64,000 nucleotides of DNA from an uncultured Gammaproteobacteria bacterium (GCA_964406795.1 CAYOTA010000004.1:46877-110876); one strand, 5' to 3'; positions 4,707-54,558 are shown, counted from the first letter of the stretch. The notes: generated by a model not told the origin, from the sequence alone. Program-made: numbers and translations.

Positions 4707-6352
4707 GGCAAGACCTCCACCGCGCTGAGGAACACATTCTGGGTGGCCCCGTGCGGCGCGAGACTCAGCAGGATCTCGCCCGCCGCGTCCGGGCGCAGCG
4801 TCAACTCCCGCACGCACGCCCGGAACGTGCCCGGAGCCACCGCAAACACGTCCAGCGAGGCGATGGTCGCCACCGTCGCGCCCGTGGCTGATACCGCCAT
4901 CACGCACACCCCGGCGGCGCCGCCCGTCCCCAAGTCCGCCCAGTGCAGCCGGAGGGTGTATTCGTGCTCCGGTGCGAGACCCGTGAGCACCAGAGTGAAG
5001 ACCCCGCCATCCGTGCGCGCCCGCGCTGTTTGGTAGATCGCCTCCGGCGCCGCCTCCGCCACGCCGCTGCGGTCGATGGCCTCCGCGGTGATGAGGTTGC
5101 TGCCCGCCGCCAGGAGTTGGTGCGCCAGGTAGGGATACAGCGCCGGCCCACCCAGATTGATCCGCCACCCCGGGTGCGGGCTCATGCGGTAGTGCAGGGC
5201 CACATCCAGCGCCGTGTGCCGCAGTCCTGAGGTGGCGCTGTGGGAAACCACCCGCCACGCCAACCTCGCGCCCGGAGGAACCACCAACTCCGACAGGGTA
5301 ACCGACGCCTCCACAGATACGCCCATAGCTCCCGCCGGCAAAGTCAGGGTAATCCCCGTGGCGACACCCGCCCAGAGCAACTCGAGCACCGTCGGCTCCG
5401 GCGCGCCCATCGCCAAGGCCTGCGCGCGGACGACCGTGGCCTGAATGGCGGCACCCCACTGGCGCCAGCCGGGCAGCAGCCCCTCGGCCTCCGGTTGCAC
5501 CCCGGCACTCCAACCCACCACGAATTCGGTGGCCGGCACCGATCCCAAGCCCAACGCGGAGAGCTGTCGCAGCAGGCTGTAATCCGCCGCAGCCAGAAAG
5601 CCGGGTGCCTCCTCGGTGGCCAGCGAATGCGAGTGGTTGCCCCTGGCCGCCTGCTCGGCCCCAGTGCCCGCCGGCACCGAGAGCCCGTCCTCACCGGCAG
5701 CAATCGGGATGCCCGAGGCCGGCGCCGCATCCAGCCTGACGCTGGCCCGCACCACCCCCGCTTCGATGTTGACCGCAGCGGTGGGCGTGTCCCCGCCCTC
5801 CAAGACTTCCGCGGCGGGTCCATGCTCATGATCCCCGCGCGCCGCTTGCCCGTGGGCGTCGCCGAAGTCGAGCGCCAGCCCAGCCTCGCCCACCACCAGT
5901 CCACCGCCGGGAGCCAGCCGCACGGCGCCGGTCAATTGCTGCCCGCTGAGCTGCAGCTCCACCGTGGTCGTAGCGGCCACGCTCAGTGGATCGTGCAACT
6001 GGTCATGGGAATGATCGCCAGGGGCGGCTTGTTGCGCACCGGCGCCCAACTGCACCGCCAAACCCGCCTCGGTCACCGCGAGCGGCCCCTCCGGCGCGAC
6101 CCGCACCACCAGCGTGCGCGTGCCGTCTCCGGCCACGAATTCCACTCCACCACCAGCCACGAGCCACGCCTCCGTGGCCGCCCGTACCGCCGCCGCCAAC
6201 CCCGTCACCTCGCCCGCAGCGTGGGCGTGCGCGGGCAACCCCAGGGACTCCAACAGGGTCAGCAGGTCCATCCGGCGCACGGGTTCCGTGCCGTCGGATG
6301 GGGCCTGCCCCACGAAAACCCGCCCCACCGTCAAGGCAACCAATTCATTCAT
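4703..6352 (-). CDS. HxH tail-fibre-repeat protein (549 aa)
   Basis: Three repeats G-x-x-Q-A-A-x-G-(D/N)-H-(S/E)-H (GDHSHDQLHD, GDHEHGP, GNHSHS) typical of phage tail-fibre HxH repeats; ATGA overlaps at both ends. Confidence 0.5.
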   Translation of the reverse strand: MNELVALTVGRVFVGQAPSDGTEPVRRMDLLTLLESLGLPAHAHAAGEVTGLAAAVRAATEAWLVAGGGVEFVAGDGTRTLVVRVAPEGPLAVTEAGLAVQLGAGAQQAAPGDHSHDQLHDPLSVAATTTVELQLSGQQLTGAVRLAPGGGLVVGEAGLALDFGDAHGQAARGDHEHGPAAEVLEGGDTPTAAVNIEAGVVRASVRLDAAPASGIPIAAGEDGLSVPAGTGAEQAARGNHSHSLATEEAPGFLAAADYSLLRQLSALGLGSVPATEFVVGWSAGVQPEAEGLLPGWRQWGAAIQATVVRAQALAMGAPEPTVLELLWAGVATGITLTLPAGAMGVSVEASVTLSELVVPPGARLAWRVVSHSATSGLRHTALDVALHYRMSPHPGWRINLGGPALYPYLAHQLLAAGSNLITAEAIDRSGVAEAAPEAIYQTARARTDGGVFTLVLTGLAPEHEYTLRLHWADLGTGGAAGVCVMAVSATGATVATIASLDVFAVAPGTFRACVRELTLRPDAAGEILLSLAPHGATQNVFLSAVEVLP

Positions 6353-7728
6353 TCGCGAGGCCCCCCATCCACCTGCCCCGGCGCGCGCCCGGGCAACTGC
6401 TTGGCGCCCGTTCCACGATTGAAGAGCGGGAGCACCCGCCCCGCGGTTTGCTGCTTTCCGGCCAACTGCGCCTCGGCCTCCTTGCGCTCCTGCTCTTCCT
6501 CCTGATCAAAGCCCTGATCCTCGAGGTAGGTGCGTTGGCTGATCGGGCCGGACTCCAGACCGTGCTTGAGAATATCCAGCGCCAGCCGAGCGTCCTGAAA
6601 GCACTGGGACCCCCACGCTGGCCGCACCGGCACCGGCGCCCCGAGCACCTCCGCGACCCGGCGGATAGCCCGCGCGACTTCCTGGCGCTGCTCCATCGCC
6701 TCGGTCCGGAAGAGGCTCCAGGCATTGAGCGCCGCCTGCGGGTCGTGCAAAATCTGACCGAGCGGCCCCAGAAACTCATACACCCGGCGGCGCAAACCAT
6801 CGTACCGGGTGCTGTCAAAAACCTCCGGGTCCGGGTGCGGGAACTCCAGCGTCCGGTCAAAATTGGTGACCATTTCCACGATCCCAAACCGCCCTTCGGT
6901 CATATTGCGGATCGCGGTCGCGTGTTCCTTTTTGCAGTGGTAGGTGGGCTTGCCAGCGGCGGGCCCGACGCGGATTTCATGCCCCACTTTCCACTGTGCG
7001 AAAACCCGGCGGTAGAGGAAGGCGTTGAGCTGATCCCCCACCTCCAGCGAGGCCTGCGCCTCGAGGGTTCGCAGCAGCCCTCGCAGGCGCGGCATCGCGA
7101 AGCCCAGGCCAGCTCGCTCGCGCTTGAGCACCAAAAACCTCTCGCCCACCCCTTCCCCCACCGTGATCTCTCCTTTCTGGTAGCGGGCGCGCTCCTTTGG
7201 TGGGAGCGCCTCGAGATCCTTGGCGTCCAAATGCACCTTCATCCGCAACTTCTCGACCCCCATGACGTCGCTGTACTCGCAGCGTTCCGGAGGGACCACG
7301 AGAACGCGCTCGACAGTTCCAGCACGAACTTCGCGCCAGAAGAGCACCACATTATCAAGCAGGAGCCAATCCCGCCACAAACAGCGCACCACCTCATGGA
7401 TGCTGTCCAGTGCGTCCGGATTGCCCTCGCACCAATCCTTCCACACCTGCCGGTCGCCGGTGCGCTGAGGCACCAGGCGCAGTCGGTAGTTGAGAAAACA
7501 GCCCTTGAGTTGCAGCAGAGCGCTCAGCGCATGGCTTTCCGACTCGAAGCGCCGAGCCTCCTTCATGATCCTGCCCTTATCCTCGTGCAGATCCTCGCCG
7601 CAGGATTCCCACGCCTTGCGATCCCGGGGCAACACGGGGCGTTCGGACAACTGAAAACCATATCCCCCGCCGCGGTTGGCGGTGGACTGCGCCCTTTTTC
7701 GTGCTGGCGTTCGGGCCATGTGCACCAC
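6349..7728 (-). CDS. hypothetical protein, possible portal (459 aa, acidic C-terminus DQEEEQERKEAEAQ)
   Basis: Large ORF heading the apparent head gene set; function inferred from position only. Confidence 0.3.
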   Translation of the reverse strand: MVHMARTPARKRAQSTANRGGGYGFQLSERPVLPRDRKAWESCGEDLHEDKGRIMKEARRFESESHALSALLQLKGCFLNYRLRLVPQRTGDRQVWKDWCEGNPDALDSIHEVVRCLWRDWLLLDNVVLFWREVRAGTVERVLVVPPERCEYSDVMGVEKLRMKVHLDAKDLEALPPKERARYQKGEITVGEGVGERFLVLKRERAGLGFAMPRLRGLLRTLEAQASLEVGDQLNAFLYRRVFAQWKVGHEIRVGPAAGKPTYHCKKEHATAIRNMTEGRFGIVEMVTNFDRTLEFPHPDPEVFDSTRYDGLRRRVYEFLGPLGQILHDPQAALNAWSLFRTEAMEQRQEVARAIRRVAEVLGAPVPVRPAWGSQCFQDARLALDILKHGLESGPISQRTYLEDQGFDQEEEQERKEAEAQLAGKQQTAGRVLPLFNRGTGAKQLPGRAPGQVDGGPRE

Positions 7729-8119: not shown

Positions 8120-8125
8120 AATCGT

Positions 8126-8436
8126 CTAACCAGTCGCTCCAACCAACGGCGGTTTCGCGTCACTCATGGCTACCCCCTCTCGCCGTGGCTGAGCGGTGGC
8201 GTTAGAACTCATCAGCACGTCCTCGGCCGTCCGCTGGGCCATGGCCGCGATCTGGACCAGCTCGGCCACCATCAGGTCTGTGCTCCGTTCGCTGCGCTTC
8301 TTCTTCACCTCTTCCCAGAACTCATCAACCTCCTCCAACAGCACCGCGTAGCCCTCGTGGACCGATGCCTGTTTTCCGTGCTTGGCGCGGGCGGATTCCA
8401 GCTCCCGCCTTTGGAGCTCGACGAACGTATTCACGG
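8126..8436 (-). CDS. hypothetical coiled-coil protein (GTG start)
   Basis: GTGA overlap with stop of the upstream gene at 8431-8436; the longer track ORF overlaps its neighbour out of frame. Confidence 0.4.
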
Positions 8437-8808: not shown

Positions 8809-8826
8809 ACGTTCTAACCCATCAGT

Positions 8827-9248
8827 TCAGCGGTCCCGCCTGCCGCTGGGATTGTTGGTTTCGTCAGCGGGCGGGCCGCTGACTTCGGTGTTCGGTCCGA
8901 ATAGATGGTGGACCATCTTAAGCAGGTCCCCTTCGGCGCTGTTTGGGAACCGCATCGTTCCATCGGTTTGGCCGTAGAAGTGCAACATTCGTCGACGCAG
9001 CTCGTCGGCGATTTCCACCTTGGACCAGCCGGCCCAGCCGCCAGGCCGAACCATCCGCTCCATCGAACAATGGAAGGTGGTGGCGGTTGAGGGATCGGGC
9101 GCTCCGCTGCTCTCGTTGTCCCCGCCTTCACGCGGCGAATACGGCGCGCCACAACCATCGCACCGATCTCTGGAAGGGAGCTGCCGCCCGCAATAGTCGC
9201 AGCGCAATTGGAATTTCTGAGGCGGAGGAGGTGGAGTAAGCATACCCA
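8827..9248 (-). CDS. zinc-ribbon protein (CDYCG...CDGCG) with C-terminal PNTEVSG tail
   Basis: Internal start MGMLTPPPPP; C-terminus carries the same GPNTEVSG motif as the gene array at 17.4-20.5 kb. Confidence 0.45.
8868..8900 (-). repeat. isolated copy of the GGTGTTCGG / PNTEVSG junction motif
   Basis: gacttcggtgttcgg inside the 3' end of gene 8827..9248. Confidence 0.5.
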
Positions 9249-9804: not shown

Positions 9805-10134
9805 TTACTGCGCCCGGGCGGCCACGGCGGCCAGCAAAGTTGGATGCCATTCGTAAGTATCCTTGTCGGGATCAAATACATCATTCGTCATGGCAAGGTG
9901 GAATCCTCCAATCGTCCGCATGAGTCCACCTGGATGCCCTGCGAAGCATTCCGTCACGCGCTCATGGAATTTGCGGAGATGATCCACATTGTCCTTATCG
10001 AAGCAGTCCGCTCGGTCACCTTCATCCCAGGTACCATCGGGTTTACACGGGATCCCATCCTCCGCGGTGTTGAGAACGCGCATCAGTTTAAGGAGAGCAT
10101 CCACTTCCTGAGGTGTTGCCTTTGTCAGTTTCAC
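9805..10134 (-). CDS. hypothetical protein (109 aa)
   Basis: ATGA overlap with HNH gene stop at 10131-10134. Confidence 0.5.
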   Translation of the reverse strand: MKLTKATPQEVDALLKLMRVLNTAEDGIPCKPDGTWDEGDRADCFDKDNVDHLRKFHERVTECFAGHPGGLMRTIGGFHLAMTNDVFDPDKDTYEWHPTLLAAVAARAQ

Positions 10135-10486
10135 TTATCTTCTCCATTTCGATGTAACCAATCGGCATTCATCGACATGCTGTTGCCACGAGCCCGATTG
10201 CACTCCAAGCAGGCGAGGGCGAGGTTCTTGATGTTGTGTGTCCCACCCCTGCTGATGGGGCGCAGGTGCTCGATTGTGGCCGACTTCAGACCATTCTTGC
10301 CATCGAAGCAGAGTTGGCACTTGCACCAGATACACAACGAACCGTCCCGGGCACGGAGACGCCGGACCTTCTTGGCGCGACGGCGGGAGTCCCACCAGCG
10401 GAGCATTAATTTCTTATGCTCCCGAAGAGACCCAAGCAAATGGTCGGCAGGGGGCGAGATCGGCGCTGTGGATTCATTGCTCATCT
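10131..10486 (-). CDS. HNH endonuclease (~118 aa)
   Basis: CIWCKCQLC...HLRPISRGGTHNIKNLALACLECN: zinc-finger HNH motif. Confidence 0.7.
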
Positions 10487-11866
10487 TTATGCCGGTGAGG
10501 CCAAGATGCCCACGGTCGCGCGCTCTCCACTTTCCTCGACTACGGCTGAGCCCCGTTGGTTCTGCCAGCTTTGCCAGCAAGTCGAATCCTGCGATATCGC
10601 GCCAGCCACCAAGGCTCCCGAAAGCCCGCAGGGCACGGCATTGCCGATCTGTCGAACCACCTCGGTTTTGGTTCCGGTGAATCGATAACCGCGCGGGAAA
10701 CCCTGCGCGGCGGCGAGTTCGTGGGGCTGAAGCATCCGGAAGCGGATGTCGAGGAAGCATCGCTCGCCGCCGGAATCCACCTCGGGCATCGCCAGTCCGA
10801 AGCGGGACTTGGCGGTCACGGTACCGAGCGGTTCGGTGATTCTCCGGGCCCCGCCGGTGCCATAGTATTCAATCAGAAATGGCTCAACCAAGCCGTGGTG
10901 AATACCGCCCGCGGAGATAGTGGAGAGCGGTTCGGAAAGAGGGCGCGCGGAACCGCGCACCTGGGATGGCGAGGTGCCGCGCATTTGAATGATGAACGGT
11001 TCGGCCAGACCTATGGCACCACACCGAGCGGTCGTAATGGTGGGCAGCGGGGAATCCACCGAGACCACCCGCCCGCCGTGTTCCATGCAAACCAGGTGAG
11101 GCGCTCCACCGAACCGCCGCAATCCATCCAGAATGCGCTCCAGCGTGCGGGGCGCGAGGGGCTTCTTGCGCGCATAAATGCTGTCCGCCTGGATCGACCA
11201 ATCGATGATCTCGCGGGCCGCGCGCCACGGATGAAGCGGGCCAAATAGATCGGCGTCCGCATTCTTCCGGTGCGTCGGTTCCGGCCAGACGATTTTGCGC
11301 CGGCCAAGGACCGCTTGCACAAAGAGACGCTCGCGGCTCGTCGGATCGCCGTAGTCCGCGGCACAAAGCACCCGCCAGTCCACGCGGTAGCCGAGGGATT
11401 CGAGCATCCCGATCCACGCCCGGAAGGTGGCCCCCTTCCTGCTCCTCAAAGGGCGACCATCGACACCTAGAGGCCCCCACTCGGCAAATTCCTTCACGTT
11501 CTCCACGAGGATCACCGAAGGGCGCAACGTCTCTGCCCATCGGGTCACGCAATGCCCAGACGCGCGCGATTGGTCGGACATCGGTTTTCCGCCGCGGGCC
11601 CGAGAATGGTGGGTGCATTCCGGAGAGGCCCACAGCAGGTCCAACGTCCCGCTCGGGAAGAGATGCCTCGGGTTGATGCTGTCCACCGCGGCGCAGACAT
11701 GCCGGGAGGCCGGGTGGTTGGCCTCATGCGTCGCCACCGCCACCGGCCAGTGATTGACCGCGGTCAGTTCCGCTCGAAACCCCAGGCGGCGCAGGGCAAC
11801 CAAGGCCCCCGTGCTGGTCCCGCCCGCTCCGCAGAACAAATCGGCGATCTGGAACACTCGTGACAT
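10487..11866 (-). CDS. dcm: DNA (cytosine-5)-methyltransferase
   Basis: Motif I DLFCGAGG, PC motif ASPECTHHS, ENV, and QIGNAVP motif X. Confidence 0.85.
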   Translation of the reverse strand: MSRVFQIADLFCGAGGTSTGALVALRRLGFRAELTAVNHWPVAVATHEANHPASRHVCAAVDSINPRHLFPSGTLDLLWASPECTHHSRARGGKPMSDQSRASGHCVTRWAETLRPSVILVENVKEFAEWGPLGVDGRPLRSRKGATFRAWIGMLESLGYRVDWRVLCAADYGDPTSRERLFVQAVLGRRKIVWPEPTHRKNADADLFGPLHPWRAAREIIDWSIQADSIYARKKPLAPRTLERILDGLRRFGGAPHLVCMEHGGRVVSVDSPLPTITTARCGAIGLAEPFIIQMRGTSPSQVRGSARPLSEPLSTISAGGIHHGLVEPFLIEYYGTGGARRITEPLGTVTAKSRFGLAMPEVDSGGERCFLDIRFRMLQPHELAAAQGFPRGYRFTGTKTEVVRQIGNAVPCGLSGALVAGAISQDSTCWQSWQNQRGSAVVEESGERATVGILASPA

Positions 11867-17188: not shown

Positions 17189-17431
17189 TTATTCACGGCT
17201 TGCAGCACTCCTTTCGTGGTTGATTTCGAGCCACCGACGCAGCGTGGTAATTGCCTCCCTGACATCCTGCTCGAGATTCTTGTGTTTACGCCCGCGGCGC
17301 AGGAGCTTCTTCACCGCTTGGAAAAGGACCGGATCGAGCCCGTACTCGATGGCTATTCGGTAGGGGTCCAACAGCACCCCAGCGACGCGGATCTTGTAGG
17401 GGTCTCTATTGCGCACAATGTTCATTATCAC
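17189..17431 (-). CDS. hypothetical protein (80 aa), low-GC patch
   Basis: Clean ORF MIMNIVRNRDPYKI. Confidence 0.45.
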   Translation of the reverse strand: MIMNIVRNRDPYKIRVAGVLLDPYRIAIEYGLDPVLFQAVKKLLRRGRKHKNLEQDVREAITTLRRWLEINHERSAASRE

Positions 17432-17443
17432 GACTATTGTCGT

Positions 17444-18094
17444 CTAATCAGTGTTCGGAGGTGGTACAGGGCGCCAGGCGGTCACGAGCTCGCTGCTCCC
17501 TTCCCACGAAACGAATCCGGCACCGCGGTAGTATCGCGCTTCGTAGATACCTCCAGCGGTTCGCACTTGGACGACTTGCCCGTCAAGTGGTCGGCGAGCA
17601 TCGATGCCAAACCATCCATACAAATCAGCGGTCTCTGTGTTCGGGGATTGAAAGCCGACTGGTCCCGGTGGACCTGCTGGAGCATCGATTATTCCAGTCT
17701 CGCCGGTCGGCGCGGCGCTTGGTTTGTTGTATTGGCCACGACTTTCCATACCTTCCCGGGCCGCGCAGGAGATGGCCTGCTCTGGCTGGTATCCGGTACC
17801 CGTGGCCGTTGGAACGTCTGTGTTCGTTGGTGGTAGGACAGGCCGGCTCCATTCAACACCAGCGCTGGCGCTGACATCGTACTTCGGCCCCCATCCGCCC
17901 GATCCGTCGATGTACTCCCAACGGAGATCTCTCCTGTGTGGGTCAACCCACAGCGGCCTAAAAACCCTCACCAGCCGCCAGTGTCCTCTCGCTATAGACG
18001 TGCCGCGGAACCAGTAGTATCCCGGCTCTGTTGGGAGCCCCGAACCCACCACGTGAGCGGGCAGCGGGTCAGTTGTGGTCGTTGGGGTGCTCAT
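17444..18094 (-). CDS. array member E (216 aa): leader MSTPTTTTDPLPAHVVGSG, internal SPNTE and terminal PPNTD
   Basis: ATGA overlap with member D; shares a ~175-bp direct repeat with member C. Confidence 0.55.
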   Translation of the reverse strand: MSTPTTTTDPLPAHVVGSGLPTEPGYYWFRGTSIARGHWRLVRVFRPLWVDPHRRDLRWEYIDGSGGWGPKYDVSASAGVEWSRPVLPPTNTDVPTATGTGYQPEQAISCAAREGMESRGQYNKPSAAPTGETGIIDAPAGPPGPVGFQSPNTETADLYGWFGIDARRPLDGQVVQVRTAGGIYEARYYRGAGFVSWEGSSELVTAWRPVPPPNTD

Positions 18095-18890
18095 GATTCG
18101 CTGCCGCTCCGTTCGGTGTTCGGACTTTCGTCCGTCAGCAGCCGTTTCACCGCAAGCCCGATAACAAGAGCGAGACTGTCCCCGGTCTCACCATAACGCC
18201 GCCCCGCCTTGCTGGTGATCTCGACGCACGCCGATCCAGCCGACCCGCTCCCAATTCCCCACCGTTCCACGATCTGTCGCAGTCTCTCGAGCAGCCCGAT
18301 TGCGCAGTGGAGGTGCGATGAATATCCGGGGACAACTCGGGAGATTCTCCAGGAGACAAGCGGCCTGAAATCCGCGGCGGTCGCCGTGCTTGGCAGGCCG
18401 AATTGCTTGCAAATATCCGGCTTCCAGTTTTTCCACATCTCGGGCCATAGCGATTCCGCGGATCGATCGTTGAGTGATCTGATCAAACTCTCCCTGTCGG
18501 CGCGGTTCCGCGGGGTGTCGTATGGCGTCCCAAAACCTTCGAGTGGCACACCGTCAAGGCAGAGAGAGATAAAGTCGCTCGGCGCTTCACCAAGCAGGGC
18601 GCTCAATTCGAAATCGAGCGGCGATCCGGTGAGTATAACGTCCGAACCAGCCGCCTGAGCGGCCGTCGATTTCGGGTCGGGTGTAGTCATGGATTCGTTC
18701 CTCCGCCGCTCGGCTTGGTGTTCGGAGATTGAATGCCAACTGGTCCTGGTGGACCTGCTGGAGCTTCGATACTTCCAGTCTCGCCGGCCGGCGCGGCGCT
18801 TGGTTTGTTGTTTTGGCCACGGCTTTCCATACCTTCCAGGGCCGCGCAGGAAATGGCCTGCTCTGGCTGGCATCCGATACCCGTGGCCGT
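17635..18890 (-). repeat. ~175-bp direct repeat, copies ~17635-17810 and ~18716-18890
   Basis: Both copies encode TATG.G.QPEQAISCAA.EGMESRGQ.NKPSAAP.GETG.I.APAGPPGPVG.QSPNT at residues 96-153 of members E and C. Confidence 0.7.
18091..18690 (-). CDS. array member D (199 aa): leader MTTPDPKSTAAQAAGSD, tail SPNTERSGSES
   Basis: ATGA overlaps at both ends. Confidence 0.55.
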   Translation of the reverse strand: MTTPDPKSTAAQAAGSDVILTGSPLDFELSALLGEAPSDFISLCLDGVPLEGFGTPYDTPRNRADRESLIRSLNDRSAESLWPEMWKNWKPDICKQFGLPSTATAADFRPLVSWRISRVVPGYSSHLHCAIGLLERLRQIVERWGIGSGSAGSACVEITSKAGRRYGETGDSLALVIGLAVKRLLTDESPNTERSGSES

Positions 18891-19175
18891 TGGTAAGCGC
18901 TTCAGGATCTTCGCTCGGATCTGGCGCAGAAATCGCGCCGAATTCTCCAGCTTCTGGACCCGGACCTCGATTTCCGGATAGGCCCCATCCCAGACCCAGC
19001 CCCTGCCGCCATTGGCCGCGAACCCTTCGCACCAGGTGCGAGCCTCCGCGTCGAGTCGATCCGCGGCACGGCGGAGGTCGTCAAGGTCGCCGGAGCACAG
19101 TAGGGAACGAGGCTCCGAACCAGCCTCCGAACCCGCCGGCTCAACGACGTTCGGTTGTGTGGGGGTCGCGCTCAT
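18687..19175 (-). CDS. array member C (162 aa): leader MSATPTQPNVVEPAGSE, tail SPNTKPSGGGTNP
   Basis: ATGA overlaps at both ends. Confidence 0.55.
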   Translation of the reverse strand: MSATPTQPNVVEPAGSEAGSEPRSLLCSGDLDDLRRAADRLDAEARTWCEGFAANGGRGWVWDGAYPEIEVRVQKLENSARFLRQIRAKILKRLPTATGIGCQPEQAISCAALEGMESRGQNNKPSAAPAGETGSIEAPAGPPGPVGIQSPNTKPSGGGTNP

Positions 19176-19648
19176 GGCTTTTGGTCTCCGTCGTTGGCCT
19201 TGGTGTTCGGAGAATTAACCGGCCTCATGGTTACAGTCGTCCCCATTTCCAGGGCCGCCCGCGCATGCTCAAGGACGTATTCTAGATCCCCGGCAGCGCA
19301 GATGTCTGGGGCGATTGCCCCGGGTCTCATGGGGGACTTGATTTCGTATCGGTCCGAGTTCGGTGCCGTTGTTGCTTGATTCGTCGCCACCGGGTCAGCC
19401 TCGAATGCGTAGGTGCCGCGTGGAGTCATCTCGATCCTGAATAGGCGAACGCCGCCACGCCGCATCTTCTCGGCGAGCAAACTGGCATGTCTCGTCCACC
19501 ACTCTCCTGGGTTGCAGACCGGACATCTTGGATAAGATGGCTGTTCGTCCTTTTGCTCGTAACCGCAGATCGAGCATCGGCGCGTCATGGGGAAGTTTTC
19601 CGAACCCGCCGCCTGAGCGGTCGGGGTTGGGTTTTGTGGCGTGCTCAT
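19172..19648 (-). CDS. array member B (158 aa): leader MSTPQNPTPTAQAAGSE, zinc ribbon CSICG...CPVC, tail SPNTKANDGDQKP
   Basis: ATGA overlaps at both ends. Confidence 0.55.
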   Translation of the reverse strand: MSTPQNPTPTAQAAGSENFPMTRRCSICGYEQKDEQPSYPRCPVCNPGEWWTRHASLLAEKMRRGGVRLFRIEMTPRGTYAFEADPVATNQATTAPNSDRYEIKSPMRPGAIAPDICAAGDLEYVLEHARAALEMGTTVTMRPVNSPNTKANDGDQKP

Positions 19649-20050
19649 GCTTCAGGTCCTCCGCCGCTGACTTCGGTGTTCGGCAGATATTGGCGGTACC
19701 AATCCAACGTGTTCGGCGTCCACGGGCGGCGGCCTTTTTCTAAGTCCGAGACGTAGGGAGCGGAGCATCCCATCCGACGGGCCATCTCCCGGATCGACAG
19801 CCCTTGACGCTCTCTCTCCTCGCGCATACTGGCCCCAACGGCTTCATGGTCCCATTCGGATCGCTGGTTCCATGTATCGACTGCGTCCTCGCGGTCGAAA
19901 AATCCGTTCGTTTCGACTGGGCACACAGGGCATCTGGCGCGCCACACATTCGCGCATTCGTACACCTCCGCCAGACCCCCACAAAAAGGGCATGGGTACA
20001 GTTCCGAACCCGCCGCCTGAGCGGTCGGGGGTGTGGTCTGGGGTTCATTC
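19645..20050 (-). CDS. array member A (135 aa): leader MNEPQTTPPTAQAAGSE, zinc ribbon CPFCG...CPVC plus XRE-type HTH, tail LPNTEVSGGGPEA
   Basis: HTH segment GLSIREMARRMGCSAPYVSDLEKGRR. Confidence 0.55.
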
Positions 20051-20284
20051 ATAGTCTTCGCTCCAATCGAGGTCGTCTGCGCTGAAATCCGGATCGTGCC
20101 CCAACCTGTCACAGAGTCCTCCGGCCAGCACGCCAGCGCATGGACAGTCGTGGGGCGGACGGCAGGCGCAGTCCTTCGCGGATTCCTCAACGAATCGCAG
20201 GTACTCCACGGACTCGTACGGGTCCACACTGTCCGAACCCGGCACGTGAGCGGGCAGCGGTTCCGTTGGGGTGTCGGTCTTCAT
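20045..20284 (-). CDS. hypothetical Cys-rich protein (79 aa): leader MKTDTPTEPLPAHVPGSD
   Basis: Leader resembles member E; ATGA overlap. Confidence 0.5.
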   Translation of the reverse strand: MKTDTPTEPLPAHVPGSDSVDPYESVEYLRFVEESAKDCACRPPHDCPCAGVLAGGLCDRLGHDPDFSADDLDWSEDYE

Positions 20285-20556
20285 CTGGTGTCGCTGCCGC
20301 TCCGTTTGGTGTTCGGCGGCTGCGCGTCCGCAAGGGCGGTCAGCTCATTGGATAGAATTCGCACCTGGTCCTCCGTCACGCGCACGGAGTAAACCTCGTC
20401 GCACATCTCTCGGATCTCGATCTTCCCATCAGGCAGCCGACTGATCCGCATGATTCGAGAGCGATCCAGTCCCTCCAGAACCGATGCGAATTCTGTCAGC
20501 CCATCAAACGCCGACGAGTCGATTTCGAGCATCGTCGGCCAGAGTGCATTCGTCAT
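20281..20556 (-). CDS. hypothetical protein (91 aa), tail PPNTKRSGSDTR
   Basis: Carries the conserved C-terminal tail of the array. Confidence 0.5.
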   Translation of the reverse strand: MTNALWPTMLEIDSSAFDGLTEFASVLEGLDRSRIMRISRLPDGKIEIREMCDEVYSVRVTEDQVRILSNELTALADAQPPNTKRSGSDTR

Positions 20557-20665
20557 GGCATTCCATCAGCCCACAACAACACGGACAGTATAACTGATCC
20601 GTCAGCGATTTGATCATGCCTTCTCGGATCGTTTGAACTTCTTGTGCGCTCATGGCATTAACCGG

Positions 20666-21049
20666 TTATCTCGCAGGAACGTTCCACGATCCTTTGGCGC
20701 ACAACAACCCCTCGGACCGCGCCTGCTCCGGGTTTGCCGCAATCCAGTCGTGGCAGCTTCGGCAAACCGCGACCCAGAAGCGCGTGTCCATGAGCAGCGT
20801 CCCGACCCGTCCACGCGTGTGGTGAATGTCCGCCGTCAGCTTCGCGCATCCCGCCCGTTCGCAATGTCGATGCTCCCGCTTATACGCATCCGCCTTTACC
20901 CGGTATTCACGCATCCTCCGCGCCATTGATTTCGATCTGCGTGCGATCCTCTTCGGTTGAGCATTTGTCGACACAACGGCCCCCGAGACGGTCGTCCAGT
21001 TGGCCTTCGGACGTTTTGGCTTACGGTTTTTCATTGCCATAAAATCCAA
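20666..21049 (-). CDS. HNH endonuclease-like protein (127 aa)
   Basis: CERAGC...HH...CRSCHDWI motif arrangement. Confidence 0.55.
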   Translation of the reverse strand: MDFMAMKNRKPKRPKANWTTVSGAVVSTNAQPKRIARRSKSMARRMREYRVKADAYKREHRHCERAGCAKLTADIHHTRGRVGTLLMDTRFWVAVCRSCHDWIAANPEQARSEGLLCAKGSWNVPAR

Positions 21050-49320: not shown

Positions 49321-50445
49321 CTACTTCTGATTCGCCATCAGTTCCCGGTTGGCGGCGATATACGCCTCGGAAGGCGTCATCCGGTTCTTCGCCATCAGTT
49401 CGTTCGCCCTGGCCGAGACCCGCGTCGCATGCTCTTCGGTGACGGTGTTCTCGTCCGCATCGGGATTTCCGGGATTCTTGCCGGACCGATTGTGCACCGG
49501 CTTCGGCACCGTCTTGGTCTCGACACCAGCATCCTTCAGAAGCGCCAGCGTTCCATCGCGGTCGGCGATCAGCCGCGCCTTGATGGCGTCGCGATTCTTG
49601 ATCGCCGGCCCCAGGTTGGCGAGGTCCTGTTCAGCCACGGCCTCCCGGAGCTTTCCGACTTCGGTTTTCAGCGCGTCACGTTCGCTCTTGAGCGCGTCAC
49701 CGGCAGCAGTAGCGACGGTCAGGCGGTTCTTCACCTCGGCGACCTCGGCGGGCAGTGCCGCGAGCTTCGGCTTGGATTCGACGTACTTGTTGGCCGCCGC
49801 CTCGATTTCGGCGTCAGGCGTGGTATCAGGGATGTCGAGCATCCGGCAGAGCGCTTTCTTGTAGTCCATAGTGGTGATTTCGGTGTGTTGGTTGTCGCGA
49901 TTCGTGACCGGCTTCATCCCCCTCATGTTCGGCGCGTTGGTCAGGGCGATGCGCGTAAAGCGCCGGGGTCGCTTGCGTCCACCGCCAAGATCCTCGAAAT
50001 CTTCCAGCACCGGGCTGACCAATCGAAACGCCCCGCCCTCCACCGCCTGTTGACCCGGAACGGACCATCGGACCTTCGCCCACAGACCGTCGTCCCGGAC
50101 CTGAACGTCATCGATCCATCCCATCGCCTCAGACGTCAACTTCGGGTCGTGGCTGAAATGATCGCGATCCACCAGCATCCCCGGCCAGTCCTCACCAGCA
50201 TCCTCCTTCGACTTCAGGAACGACGCCTGAATGGCTCGCACTGTCACGGGGTCAATGACCTGGGTGCCGACCTCGGGATGCTCGAACTCGCCGAGCTTGA
50301 GCACCTGAATCCATCCGTCGTCAGGTAGCGCGAAGGCTGCGCGGTTCAGCGCCGTGCCTGTCCCATTTCGGACAGGCAAAGCAACTGGTGTTCCGTAGGC
50401 CGTCATCTCAACGGCCTTGTGCGACCGTTCGACGGCATCCGTCAA
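49321..50445 (-). CDS. Mu I-like head maturation protease/scaffold
   Basis: N-terminal domain with IQVLKLGEF-type motif followed by a long coiled coil. Confidence 0.6.
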   Translation of the reverse strand: MTDAVERSHKAVEMTAYGTPVALPVRNGTGTALNRAAFALPDDGWIQVLKLGEFEHPEVGTQVIDPVTVRAIQASFLKSKEDAGEDWPGMLVDRDHFSHDPKLTSEAMGWIDDVQVRDDGLWAKVRWSVPGQQAVEGGAFRLVSPVLEDFEDLGGGRKRPRRFTRIALTNAPNMRGMKPVTNRDNQHTEITTMDYKKALCRMLDIPDTTPDAEIEAAANKYVESKPKLAALPAEVAEVKNRLTVATAAGDALKSERDALKTEVGKLREAVAEQDLANLGPAIKNRDAIKARLIADRDGTLALLKDAGVETKTVPKPVHNRSGKNPGNPDADENTVTEEHATRVSARANELMAKNRMTPSEAYIAANRELMANQK

Positions 50446-50463: not shown

Positions 50464-52032
50464 CTACTCGTCCCCACCAGCGAAGCCATCCAGAAGCAGC
50501 GTCTCGATTGCAGCCGTCAGGTCATCCGATTTGTCGATTTCCTTCGGAATGCGCTCAATCACCTTGAGGATTGCCGCGCCGCGTTCGTGCGGGTCCTGAA
50601 TCTCCAGCGCCGCCTCGAACTCCTGCACCACCTCTTCGCCCTCCTTGCGCAGGACCTCCATGACGGTCTGCATTCCTTCGGACGACCGATTCTTGGCCAC
50701 ATTGTCGATGTCCTGATCCTCCGTCTGATCCTTGACCTTGCTCCAATCCTTCGCCGGCTCTTCGCGCTTGGCCAGCGGCATGTCCACCAGCTTCTCGGCA
50801 TCCGCCTCTTCGACATCCCACCCTGCCGACTTCAAGCCGGTCAGGACCTTGACCCCCTCCTCCTTTGACACCGGGCGGTTTCGTCGAATCGCCAGACGGA
50901 CCAACACCGGCTCCCCCGGGAACTGGCGTTGCAACGCCGGACGTCCGTGTTGCTCGTCCAACACCTCCGCGATCTCCATCCCCTCGGCATCCGCGATTTC
51001 ATCGAACGCATCCTGGTGCGCGCCGGTCGACCCCTGACCGATGCCGGTTGCATCCGTCAACATCGTCAACTTGCCGCCCGTTCCGGCCAACACCAAAGCC
51101 GTGTCCAAGTATTTGATAAGCGTTTCGAACGGAATGTTGTCCGACGCTTCGGGTCCGGTCACCAGCTTGCAGTGCGGTGGCAGAATGTACCTGCCGTTGC
51201 TGACGAAATTGTTGAGGATAGTTGTCCGCAACAGTTCGAACGTCCCTTGATCGGCTGCCGCATCAGGTCCGATCTCAACTCCCATGTTTGGAATTCCGAA
51301 CGTCGCTGCGTACGTTGCCCAATCCTTGATCCCCATGTTTTTGACGATGTACCGCGTGCAAGCCAATTCTCCGATGCTACCTTCCTGTTCACGAACGATC
51401 CAGTTATCCGATTCGATCTTGTCTCCCCTGTTGGTTTGAGTAGCGTTTGCGTTGTACCGCCACGACAGATCAGGCATTTCACGGCACAAGAACCATTGCT
51501 GTACCGGCTCAAGATGCTTCACGATCATCTTGCCATCTCGCATAGCCCAATGCTTCTCAAGATGCGCAAACGCCCGAAACGTCGCCATCCCAAGCCAGCA
51601 CCACGCTTGCCGTAAGTTGTCGATACTCCCGTACTCTGACTTCAGGAAGTCCCTTTGACGGTGAGCCATCGCCTTCGCCTCCGGATCTTGACTGACCTCG
51701 GGCGTCAGTTCGACCGACCACTCGCAGGCTCGCAAGGCCGAGATGCGGCGCGTCTTCAGCGCCAGCACCACGTCATCCCGTCGCTCGATGAAGCTGTAGA
51801 GCCACGTCAAATCCGCGTAGTAGCCCTGCATCGCCAGGTCGAGCAACGTGACCGCCCTAGCAATCGTCAGGCTTCGCAGCGGGTTCAGCGATTGCCGGTA
51901 CAGGCTGGCGGTCATGCTCTCATGCATGCCCAACTTGTCTGCCCACCGCCGCCGAAGGTCAATCCAAACGAAACCGGCGCCACCCCGAGCAATGAGGTGG
52001 CGCCGTGCAATGCAGGGTGCGACTTTTTCCAA
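50464..52032 (-). CDS. portal protein, DUF935 (Mu gp29-like)
   Basis: YADLTWLYSFIERRDDVV-type motif; probable true start is a downstream Met (MHESMTASLY). Confidence 0.65.
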   Translation of the reverse strand: MEKVAPCIARRHLIARGGAGFVWIDLRRRWADKLGMHESMTASLYRQSLNPLRSLTIARAVTLLDLAMQGYYADLTWLYSFIERRDDVVLALKTRRISALRACEWSVELTPEVSQDPEAKAMAHRQRDFLKSEYGSIDNLRQAWCWLGMATFRAFAHLEKHWAMRDGKMIVKHLEPVQQWFLCREMPDLSWRYNANATQTNRGDKIESDNWIVREQEGSIGELACTRYIVKNMGIKDWATYAATFGIPNMGVEIGPDAAADQGTFELLRTTILNNFVSNGRYILPPHCKLVTGPEASDNIPFETLIKYLDTALVLAGTGGKLTMLTDATGIGQGSTGAHQDAFDEIADAEGMEIAEVLDEQHGRPALQRQFPGEPVLVRLAIRRNRPVSKEEGVKVLTGLKSAGWDVEEADAEKLVDMPLAKREEPAKDWSKVKDQTEDQDIDNVAKNRSSEGMQTVMEVLRKEGEEVVQEFEAALEIQDPHERGAAILKVIERIPKEIDKSDDLTAAIETLLLDGFAGGDE

Positions 52033-52050: not shown

Positions 52051-52127
52051 TGGGGGCGGGAGCCGGATTTGAACCGGCGGCCTGAACGTTATGAGCGTTC
52101 CGATCTACCAGGCTGATCTATCCCGCC
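52051..52127 (-). tRNA. tRNA-Met (anticodon CAT)
   Basis: Cloverleaf folded by hand: acceptor GGCGGGA/TCCCGCC, D stem GATC, anticodon stem GAACG/CGTTC with loop CTCATAA, T arm GCCGG-TTCAAAT-CCGGC, encoded CCA. Confidence 0.85.
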
Positions 52128-52508: not shown

Positions 52509-53954
52509 TCATCCTTCGAGCGCCCTTTCCGGCGCTGTACTTCCAGACGATGCACCATCGGCGCTCCACGTCCAACCCTTTGCCATCACCCCGAACGCCC
52601 CCGAGAGCGTGTCCACCTGATCATCGTGCGCGCCTTGAGGGAAGGCATCGCACTCCCCGATGAACGCATCATTCCATTCGCCGCGCACCAGACGGACGCT
52701 CCCATGCTCCACCTGAGGCGAGACGAACTGCGCCCGTTCGACCTTGCCCGTCCTCGGCACCGGGTTGAACCTGAGTCCTAGATGCGGGAACGTGCGGAGG
52801 TAGTGCGATACCTCGACCTTCCCTGCCTGCCCAGGGTCGGTTTCCAGCCACGTCTCTACCTTCGACCCGTCCAGCTTTGCCGTCGCTTCAATCGTCGCCT
52901 CGACCTGCGCGGGTGTTCCGCGCATCCGTCGAACGTCCATTACCCACCACTGGCCGTTCTTGCCCTTCCCAAGCTTCAGCCCCGTCGTCCAATCGGGGTC
53001 GGTGTTCTTCTTCGTCACGTCCGAGGCTGCCCGGTCCCAATACCTCACCACCCTGACGAGACCTGCCGGCGCCGCGTCGTCGATCCGCCACCAGTCGCGC
53101 TTCAGGATCATGCCAGCCGTTGCCCTGACCGACCAATCTCCAAGCTCAAGCTGTTGCCGAAGCACGTGCCCCAGTCCGCGGAGCCTCGTCAGATACGTTG
53201 GATCGGTCTTCAGCAGCGGCGCGTTGTCGGTCAGCAGCGCCGGAATGAACGTCACGCTCGTTGCCGAGTTTGGCCCGTGATTCCGTTCCGCCTCATCCTT
53301 CGTCGCGTACCACAGAAACTCATCTCGCTCGCGCACCATCCACCGGAGCACACCGGCCTTTGACCGGTCCGGAAATCGTCCTTCGTCATCCAGCCACCAG
53401 CGGATAAAGCCCTTCACCCAGCTCTCGCTGTCGGCATTACAGGTCGCCCGCATCGTCCCCGGGATGCCAGTCGTCGAACGGTTGCGGGAGAGCATGTACA
53501 GGAATTGCTCCCGCGTGAAGTGCGTCAGCTCATCGAACGCAATAAGCGGCACCTGACTGCCCTGCAACGCCCCGAGCGCCGCGTCGTCCTCCAAGTGCCG
53601 AAAGGATACCGTGAACCCGTTCGGCCAGCGCCAGATTTTCTTCCCCGGGTAACCGGTCCCGCCCGCCCACGGATAGAGCTTCACCGACGAATCCCAAAGC
53701 CCACCCGGGAGCGTTATCTGCGCCCCCACCCGTCGAAAGATCAGGCAATCGAAGTTCGGAACGTTCCTTCGCTTCAGCGGATCTAGAAGCAGTCCGAAAG
53801 TTTTTCCTCCACCGGCGCTTCCTCCATAGATCGCGATATCAGCGGCGGTCCGTAGAAACTCGTACTGCGGTCCGGGGTTCGGCTGGATCTTGATCGGGTT
53901 CGGCATTGATCGGCTCGATAATGAACTTCTGGATGTTTCGATAGGCTTCCGCAT
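52509..53954 (-). CDS. terL: terminase large subunit
   Basis: Walker A GGSAGGGKT, Walker B IAFDELTHF, C-terminal nuclease motif AHDDQVD. Confidence 0.85.
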   Translation of the reverse strand: MRKPIETSRSSLSSRSMPNPIKIQPNPGPQYEFLRTAADIAIYGGSAGGGKTFGLLLDPLKRRNVPNFDCLIFRRVGAQITLPGGLWDSSVKLYPWAGGTGYPGKKIWRWPNGFTVSFRHLEDDAALGALQGSQVPLIAFDELTHFTREQFLYMLSRNRSTTGIPGTMRATCNADSESWVKGFIRWWLDDEGRFPDRSKAGVLRWMVRERDEFLWYATKDEAERNHGPNSATSVTFIPALLTDNAPLLKTDPTYLTRLRGLGHVLRQQLELGDWSVRATAGMILKRDWWRIDDAAPAGLVRVVRYWDRAASDVTKKNTDPDWTTGLKLGKGKNGQWWVMDVRRMRGTPAQVEATIEATAKLDGSKVETWLETDPGQAGKVEVSHYLRTFPHLGLRFNPVPRTGKVERAQFVSPQVEHGSVRLVRGEWNDAFIGECDAFPQGAHDDQVDTLSGAFGVMAKGWTWSADGASSGSTAPERALEG

Positions 53955-54074
53955 GCACCGCGCACACCGGCATCTTGTGGCGCCCAGGTAAGCTTACCAA
54001 ATTCGTTGCCTCACGCCGACACGGCGATTGTCCAGAGTGATGCCACTCGCACGATGCTCCGTTTGTTATCACGA
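53839..54074 (-). CDS. HNH endonuclease C-terminal fragment (GTG start)
   Basis: CEWHHSGQSPCRREATNLVSLPGRHKMPVCAVH fits HH...N...C..H; surrounded by frame-shifted ORFs. Confidence 0.35.
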
Positions 54075-54558
54075 CAATGGTCGGCTATTGAGGGTTCGGC
54101 TGCTGGTACGACCAGCAGGCTCGGGCCGTGGTCGGAATGAACGTCGCAAGACGACCAACGCGCATTCCGTCCCCGTCTCCCAATTGCACCCATTCGCCAC
54201 GGAATCGCCAGTACACGGTACCCGAGCCTCGGTGGCGCCGCGCTGCACAACATCCGGAATCTCCGTGGAAGACCACGGAGCCGGGCTGGTAGAACAGCCA
54301 ATCCAACAGCATGCACAGGTACCATCGCGGGCGTCAGCCACTCGCGAAGGTCCTCGGGGTTGTCCGCGACCGTAGTGCCATACTTGGCAATGCCCTTCTG
54401 CTGCCGCGCGGCAATGTCAGCGCAGACTTGGGCTTCAATGCCGGTCGGTGCTGGTGTGGTGCTCATGGCGCCTCCTCCTTCCTGACCGCGAACATACTCG
54501 GGTTTCCGTGTCCGCCGCCTTCGTGGACGATCTCCAACAGTCCACGCTCAACCATGCG

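Follow-up and report, generated by a model that had tools for sequence, protein, structure and literature searches.

By analyzing a 64,000-nt stretch of phage DNA filed under an uncultured Gammaproteobacteria bacterium (GCA_964406795.1, CAYOTA010000004.1:46877-110876; hereafter the window), we found that the junctions between seven small genes at 17444-20556 have the hairpin anatomy of integron attC sites. We consider it likely, at about three chances in four, that these junctions are integron-type attC sites and that, at 17.4-20.3 kb, this phage genome contains a CALIN, the term for clustered attC sites that have no integron integrase beside them. Two more sites form another cluster at 8.1-8.9 kb. 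The first-pass annotation of this DNA had suggested an array of cassettes in which the repeated junction serves as a movable substrate for recombination, and this proposal gains support from the attC-type structure of the junctions, from covariation between their arms and from reciprocal covariance models. It was also not aware of a described family with such an architecture; integron attC sites and CALINs form such a family and have already been reported in phages (Qi 2023, PMC9892861).

The array consists of seven open reading frames (ORFs), G1 to G7, placed head to tail on the minus strand, with an ATGA stop/start overlap at five junctions and ATGAATGA at G2/G3. An element of ~85 nt occupies each of the six junctions (J1 to J6), and a repeat search resolved the junction DNA into direct-repeat families D2-D4, present in 5 or 6 copies spaced 229-633 nt apart. 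The coupled minus-strand genes with a recurring junction that had been reported are thus confirmed. The leader and the tail said to be conserved on these genes are indeed found in the array, with the qualification that G1 has the tail only, G2 has the leader only and the upstream arm of J2 is degenerate. The tail pattern CCGAACACCRANNNNAGCGGC matched 6 times in the window for 0.05 matches expected, and none of 100 shuffles reached 6. The bodies between the junctions are unrelated, as had been claimed, and are not diverged paralogues.

At the DNA level, tail and leader correspond to opposite arms of one imperfect inverted repeat, CCGAAC-spacer-GAGCGGCAGC ... GCTGC(C)CGCTC(A)CG-spacer-GTTCGG. 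The CCGAAC...GTTCGG boxes are found in five of the six array junctions, J2 having the 3' box only. A shared fold, made of an outer stem of 6-8 bp, an internal loop and an inner stem of 9-14 bp with single bulged bases, was obtained for four of the five full array junctions, for a copy near 8.9 kb and for a 53-nt short form in the metagenome contig L025. In J1, J4, J5, J6, the 8.9-kb copy and the elements of L025 and L034, a single base, usually an A, bulges from the 3' arm of the gene-sense strand. In the long forms, the loop contains GGAGG and a C/A-rich stretch, along with the stop codon of the gene before it and the ATG of the gene after it. A crude scan for GAAC...GTTC plus a stem returned only the element sites in the window and almost nothing in shuffles.

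Then, we measured covariation over 15 distinct elements. First, 89% of the cells are paired, versus 30-41% when the partner arm is slid, and 10 of 17 pairs are changed on both sides; none of 500 shuffles reached the observed score. Second, in the L helix, eight of nine pairs are compensatory and 93% of the cells are paired, and the L box swaps its sequence wholesale between loci (CCAATTCCGGGGA, CAGCAACGCCG, GAGCGGCAGC; at least six unrelated L boxes) while the R box stays constant. Third, the AAC/GTT pairs are almost invariant, with A-U in 15/15, A-U in 14/15 (one exception) and C-G in 15/15 elements. Counts of G.T against A.C (9 versus 6) gave no strand signal.

An AAC/GTT R box, an unpaired spacer, an L box, extrahelical bases and a variable terminal structure are the features that define attC sites, and the recombinogenic strand is the one carrying the extrahelical bases opposite AAC (PMC5027507, PMC4889954). 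The junction elements share the AAC...GTT R box, the covarying L box, the extrahelical base opposite AAC and the variable loop with attC sites and CALINs, with an internal loop at the place of the spacer (PMC4889954; PMC5027507; PMC9892861), and they have this bottom-strand geometry on the gene-sense strand. They are also co-oriented, 0.2-0.7 kb apart, and separated by small ORFs mostly of unknown function; in relatives, stop codons lie inside the R box. Their lengths range from 53 nt (L025), 58 nt (L005) and 64 nt (L034) through 85-91 nt (array) to 113-122 nt (L035 and L024), and these sizes, like the 229-633 nt spacings, fit attC sites of ~57-141 nt in total and their cassettes (PMC4889954, PMC5027507).

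Phage elements and canonical attC sites also recognize each other. For this comparison, we used a covariance model of the six junctions (R1), a model of 19 phage elements only (R2) and a proxy attC model (R3) built on the bottom strands of 6 canonical class 1 attC sites, with columns set by the phage-derived model. R1 had matches, all gene-sense, in the window, in contigs L024, L025 and L038 and in the G6-homologue contigs L031, L033, L034 and L035. On a Salmonella class 1 integron (L039), R2 returned the aadA1 attC as its one strong match (26.1 bits, E 9e-6), the extrahelical G of that site aligning with the unpaired column of the model. On a six-cassette E. coli integron (L040), its top five matches were five of the six attC sites (22-28.9 bits), the next match having 11 bits. 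R2 hence recovers six of the eight canonical attC sites in the two class 1 integrons, all six on the bottom strand, and its background did not exceed 13.8 bits over ~236 kb of other loci, where stronger matches are further real elements in four IMG/VR contigs. Conversely, R3, built on these six recovered sites and searched over the whole window with filters off, had as its top six matches 8122-8210, J5, J6, 8810-8899, J1 and J3 (35.5 to 14.2 bits), all gene-sense, and it also matched elements in L024, L025, L033, L034 and L035. The phage elements match canonical attC sites only when their gene-sense strand is aligned to the bottom strand. A strict junction pattern had zero matches in the viral-contig and genome-contig searches, the tail-only pattern had 22 single matches in viral contigs, four of which (L005, L008, L013 and L021) are real elements, and Rfam 15 had one match in the window at the gathering threshold, a tRNA, and none with E<=1 within 17300-20700.

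All junctions lie on the minus strand. J1 (G1/G2, 20230-20320), with the R box CCGAAC...GTTCGG and both the G1 stop and the G2 start in its loop, has 94.6 bits with R1 and 18.3 bits (E 0.015) with R3, and its single-stranded DNA fold has a z-score of -3.6. J2 (G2/G3, 20001-20080), which keeps only the 3' box, has 18.5 bits with R1; 32 nt of its leader arm are nearly identical to that of J3 (blast self-match of 20002-20037 with 19598-19632). J3 (G3/G4, 19597-19687) has arms that pair poorly and a fold no better than shuffles, with 82.9 bits for R1 and 14.2 bits for R3. Its tail arm is like that of the 8.9-kb copy and its leader arm like that of J2, so that it looks like a hybrid of two junction types. 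J4 (G4/G5, 19124-19214; R1 91.5 bits) has the L box GGCCAACGACG/CGTCGTTG(A)GCC, with compensatory changes relative to J1. J5 (G5/G6, 18639-18729) has 93.8 bits with R1 and 20.9 bits with R3 (E 0.003), and J6 (G6/G7, 18037-18127) has 90 bits and 20.4 bits (E 0.004), respectively.

The second cluster is on the minus strand as well. The site at 8122-8210, GTTCTAAC...GGTTAGAC, is the most canonical attC of the window and the best match of R3 there (35.5 bits, E 2.3e-7; R1 20.7 bits). The site at 8810-8899 (R1 34.1 bits, R3 18.8 bits, fold z -4.1) encodes the tail GPNTEVSGPP of the upstream ORF, and the next ATG comes after the R' box GGGTTAGA. An orphan copy had been placed inside a gene near 8.9 kb; the copy exists, at the 3' end of the gene and not inside it, and it is accompanied by the one at 8122-8210, with which it delimits one ~690-nt cassette.

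The sites are embedded in coding sequence. In the array, translation of the 5' arm of each attC gives the upstream ORF its C-terminal tail (CCG AAC ACC = PNT...), and translation of the 3' arm gives ...AAGSE. As an alternative, the first-pass annotation had proposed that the leader could be a targeting or processing peptide. In its general form, this explanation takes leader and tail for functional peptides (a capsid-targeting, secretion or protease-processing signal) and lets the DNA similarity follow from protein selection. It can point to six to eight cases in the window in which leaders and tails are translated in frame, and to a Mu-type prohead protease encoded at 49321-50445. However, the PNT tail is missing from every one of the 17 G6 homologues (42-68% identical), of which 15 start near the R' box, without a leader or any other N-terminal extension; one G6 relative is found in an Akkermansiaceae metagenome-assembled genome. 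Moreover, the upstream reading frame ends at, or ahead of, the R box in L027 (at a TGA inside the box) and in L024 and L031 (at a TAA in or before the box, or with the arm read as a different peptide, PQNNQAQQRREERP), so that the tail is untranslated or different there while the hairpin is kept. Other elements read in the same frame give HPNAKLRD.., PANAEVSE.. and ..PNTK(P/S)SGA followed by a stop. Leaders differ between contigs exactly where the L box differs, the two arms being mutually complementary, and third codon positions are invariant in CCGAACACC and GGTTCG. A peptide function as the source of the similarity is thus very improbable. As far as the sequences tell, the conserved "PNT..SG" tails and "M(S)TP..AAGSE" leaders arise incidentally from the DNA site, and a class of odd peptides conserved at the N- and C-termini of phage hypothetical proteins can thus be explained as a translated DNA site.

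The loop itself carries translation signals: a GGAGG Shine-Dalgarno sequence, the stop of one ORF overlapping the ATG of the next, and ~16-20 codons of C/A-rich leader. Past the R' box, neither G3 nor G6 offers a start codon, and therefore the loop ATG is their real start; for G3, the ATG inside the J2 loop is the sole in-frame start codon. These observations raise the question of whether the hairpin acts mainly in mRNA, as a portable module for translation initiation and coupling or as the operator of a translational regulator, with the Shine-Dalgarno sequence, the AUG and the unstructured C/A-rich leader displayed in a loop clamped by flanking stems, and with boundaries that merely reflect modular gene units. 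Such a role would agree with the sense orientation of all elements found relative to the genes, with the dependence of G3 and G6 on the loop ATG, and with the long forms in unrelated contigs, which keep GGAGG, the ATGA overlap and a similar M-(S/E)-T-P-T-T leader. Also, attC hairpins modulate the translation of the downstream cassette and short ORFs in attC sites couple translation (reviewed in PMC8876359). But the short forms (53-64 nt, with loops of 3-9 nt) keep the R and L boxes without an initiation region in the loop, and an RNA clamp needs no near-invariant AAC/GTT at the stem base across divergent phages. Nor would it lead to recognition of the sites by canonical attC models or to an integron-integrase-like gene adjoining such sites in L033. 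A hairpin acting mainly in mRNA is therefore unlikely; an RNA-level role of the hairpin in translation is most likely a layer added to the attC site, not an alternative that replaces it.

Other candidate elements were rejected. For boxA/nut-like antitermination, the resemblance of GCTCTAAC is limited to a subset of elements. RNase III cleavage would separate the AUG from the ORF in the long forms, and no motifs matching IS91/IS200-type ends, REP/RAYT or dif-like sites were present.

Next to the structural data, comparison with related contigs, which had been suggested as a check, indicates that homology blocks begin or end at the junction element. Upstream of 20315, contigs L027 and L042 from sister samples bear no relation to the window; they are ~89% identical to it across J1 and G2, and 100% identical from 20080 to 11189; in L027, G2 is 91% identical and J1 84%, the latter being the level of paralogous attC sites. 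L024 and L025 share an identical sequence from GCCGAACACC on, with no relation before it. In L038, which is otherwise identical to the window over 12 kb, G2-J2 is joined directly after GGGTTCG to a different body, X, followed by another long-type junction; no homologues of the body X protein were found. Besides those of the window, at least two long-type junctions thus occur in this contig (L038:145-224 and 463-565), upstream of the part shared with the right end of the window. A bracketing of the crossover to GAACAC from three boundaries was rejected, given that J1 of L027 is only 84% identical and that the L038 boundary lies at the other box. The boundaries define neither a crossover point nor a strand, because any recombination inside the shared junction yields edges there.

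This last point bears on whether the junction could simply be conserved linker homology used by general or phage homologous recombination, without a site-specific recombinase and with the hairpin as an incidental feature or a relic. Junctions sharing 30-90 nt at 80-100% identity, boundaries at either edge of the element, the hybrid look of J3, which implies exchange inside the element, and the failure to find an integrase in the window all fit with this idea. Yet it leaves unexplained the compensatory L-box changes combined with an almost invariant AAC/GTT, the constant position of the bulge and the mutual recognition with class 1 attC sites, and we regard it as improbable.

An integron-integrase-like gene was found beside such sites in a relative. 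The viral contig L033 (IMGVR_UViG_3300005660_000015) has attC-like sites at 5058-5152, 5566-5662 and 7009-7100, and encodes at 9986-10945 (plus strand) a 319-aa protein that is 37% identical to IntI1 over its full length. This protein matches the integron integrase family TIGR02249 (E 4e-74, 250 bits, just below the curated cut-off of 265), has VchIntIA (2A3V) as its best solved relative and contains the IntI-specific segment (..ARKYP..W.FLFP..HPRSG..). As in class 1 integrons, its gene is 3' of the bottom-strand-like sites and shares their strand; it lies 2.9 kb past the last site, and the intervening ORFs are all co-directional with it. L033 hence seems to hold a complete integron, with an IntI-like gene and attC sites. 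An intI gene with the IntI-specific segment beside attC sites marks a complete integron; this combination is present in L033 and not in the window, where neither a Pfam scan of ~50 ORFs nor tblastn with IntI1 found an integrase or tyrosine recombinase. Two or more attC sites close together with no intI nearby are termed a CALIN (PMC4889954). Because attC sites were found in the window without a tyrosine recombinase, we read its two clusters, one with six sites within 2.3 kb and one with two within 0.8 kb, as CALINs.

Several of these results weigh against the attC reading. First, no integrase was found in the window, nor in L038 or L042, and the L033 protein stays just under its family cut-off. 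Second, the array R box is CCGAAC/GTTCGG, whereas attC sites have RYYYAAC/GTTRRRY: array sites agree with this extended consensus at 5-6 of 7 positions (GCCGAAC / GTTCGGA), a match of 6-7 of 7 being reached by 8122-8210 (GTTCTAAC / GGTTAGAC) and by the L033-L035 relatives (GCTCTAAC, GGCTAAC / GTTAGCC, GTTAGGG, GTTGGCC). Third, the R and L boxes are separated by an internal loop of 7-12 nt, often with 1-2 C-G pairs, a longer spacer than the 5-6 nt of class 1 sites. Fourth, the arms of J3 barely pair and J2 is without one arm. Fifth, the ORF orientation is opposite to that of classical cassettes, in which the ORF is on the top strand and the attC 3' of it; the orientation of G3 and G6 is fixed by homology. 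Finally, the columns of R3 derive from the phage model, the L038 joint at G2-J2 could be a k-mer assembly chimera, and boundaries at both element edges are what any recombination within a shared junction gives.

Assuming that the junctions are attC sites, an integron integrase that comes in trans from the host or a co-infecting element would fold the gene-sense strand and exchange strands in the AAC triplet, between CCGAA and CACC. Recombination would then excise, insert and reshuffle units made of a hairpin and its downstream ORF. We infer such integrase-driven movement of hairpin-plus-ORF units from the sites and their boundaries. Because each attC is embedded in coding sequence with a stop, a Shine-Dalgarno sequence, a start and a leader, the fixed PNT frame and the stop/start overlap would keep any order of cassettes translationally coupled.

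Lone halves of the box, split between CCGAA and CAC, are found at the end of the array and inside G7, and lone extra CGAACAC boxes are located in G3 (19716) and G7 (17827, 17644 and 17458). The final box of the array, CCGAA followed by CACTGATTAG, is in G7. The array ends in CCTCCGAA directly followed by CACTGATTAG and starts after GCCGCCGAA, from CACC onward; judging from these two joints, the block 20311-17454 (2.86 kb) could have been inserted at the G1 end, in a secondary AAC site. More broadly, and tentatively, as we see it as somewhat less probable than not, these phages may carry a phage-adapted integron lineage. Its bottom-strand cassettes would be read from phage early promoters towards intI, the site having been recruited as a universal translation-coupling joint, so that small anti-defence or host-takeover genes would be expressed at once in any reshuffled order, and the array at 20311-17454 would have entered by integrase-mediated insertion into the secondary AAC site at the G1 end.

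Integrons are mainly known as bacterial platforms for antibiotic-resistance cassettes, and to our knowledge phage integrons have been reported only recently and only with the classical site/ORF geometry. What distinguishes the present sites is that the phage ORFs occupy the bottom strand, run in the same direction as intI in L033 and would be read from phage promoters and not from Pc. Moreover, the arms and loop of the array attC sites are translated, the loop giving the Shine-Dalgarno sequence, the stop/start overlap and the leader of 16-20 codons. Conserved, orientation-specific motifs or hairpins at phage gene junctions are also seen in the start-associated sequences and stoperators of mycobacteriophages and in the RNase III sites of T7 early genes, which are promoter, repressor, translation or RNA-processing signals; we know of no AAC/GTT R box, attC similarity or association with an integron integrase in any of them. 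Rickettsia palindromic elements are likewise palindromic DNA translated in frame in host proteins, as the array arms are, but they insert inside genes as selfish repeats, not at junctions, and are not known to carry start or stop signals or to be attC-like. Within integrons, termination-reinitiation across attC is a known route to express the next cassette (ORF-11 and short ORFs in attC; PMC8876359, PMC4670013); in contrast to these short helpers, the ORF that starts in the phage attC is the downstream gene itself, and this systematically across the array and several phage lineages.

The coding-embedded attC with its own Shine-Dalgarno sequence, stop/start overlap and leader, the inverted ORFs and the repeated occurrence of this design among several uncultivated phage lineages, of which one has its own integron-integrase-like gene, appear to be new. 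If the sites are active, these phages would have site-specific shuffling of small early genes such as those of restriction-alleviation proteins, the array would illustrate from nature how mobile ORFs can be expressed independently of context, and a new angle would open on the origin of cassettes and attC sites.

The cassettes are small early or accessory genes, one of them for Lar-like restriction alleviation. All array genes are on the minus strand. G1 (20281-20556, 91 aa), which has the tail without the leader and a C-terminus extending into J1, is probably flanking phage DNA and not a cassette; no homologues of its protein were found, nor relatives of the flank proteins in IMG/VR. G2 (20045-20284) is a Cys-rich cassette ORF of 79 aa with the leader and without the PNT tail. 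G3 (19645-20052) encodes a Lar-like restriction-alleviation zinc ribbon together with an XRE-type helix-turn-helix (Pfam Lar_restr_allev, HTH_31 and HTH_3; PHROG 599). G4 (19172-19648) has a zinc ribbon, G5 (18687-19175) shares its C-terminal 176 nt with G7, and G6 (18091-18690) belongs to the family with 17 homologues mentioned above. The direct repeat of ~175 bp that had been noted between two members was retrieved as this 176-nt repeat of G5 and G7 (17637-17812 and 18718-18893), 92% identical and starting at residue 95 in both. G7 (17444-18094) has three segments, each with a P(P)xNT(D/E) end, at 17827-17820, 17644-17637 and 17458-17451, and looks like cassettes that fused, lost their attC hairpins and kept a lone CGAACAC box per segment. 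Fused cassettes arising through attC loss are described (PMC8876359), and G7 is like three such cassettes after hairpin loss, with half of the R box kept.

Within the G5/G7 repeat, 17732-17799 is 81% identical to L031:1069-1136, in a contig otherwise unrelated; this part encodes a Pro/Gly/Ala-rich linker, which seems itself to move between phages. Directly after the G7 stop and just before the start of the next gene, a short palindrome, ACGACAATAGTCGT (17430-17443, minus strand), could form a hairpin or bind a protein at the presumed insertion joint. On the other side, an HNH endonuclease gene (20666-21049, minus strand; PHROG 740) adjoins the array ~110 nt upstream of G1. In the region 17400-20600, the third-position GC bias of G3, G5, G6 and G7 is weaker than in the rest of the phage, and a simple gene picker based on this bias chose antisense ORFs there; the weak bias is consistent with a foreign origin of the cassettes.

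In L025, a tRNA-like fragment (L025:~2037-2110) lies next to a gene for a highly divergent tyrosine recombinase (L025:827-2023, minus strand) that matches Pfam Phage_integrase only at E 1e-3 and has no NCBIfam or PDB match. We rejected this protein as an IntI, since it is a divergent phage-type integrase; recombinase and tRNA-like fragment probably make up an int/attP of the phage itself, ~600 nt from a short attC-like site.

From 64000 down to 51906, L038 and the window match exactly; upstream of this, L038 has ~7 kb more (L038:1-7139), encoding two DNA methyltransferases, a helicase and ASCH and DUF559 proteins, with a first 220 nt that duplicate G2-J2 exactly. Just upstream of the terminase region, 36 nt of the window (54065-54100) are 97% identical to L038:837-872, in the part of L038 that precedes the match to the window. 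A tRNA-Met gene (52051-52127, minus strand) is located between the genes of the large terminase (52509-53954) and the Mu-type portal (50464-52032).

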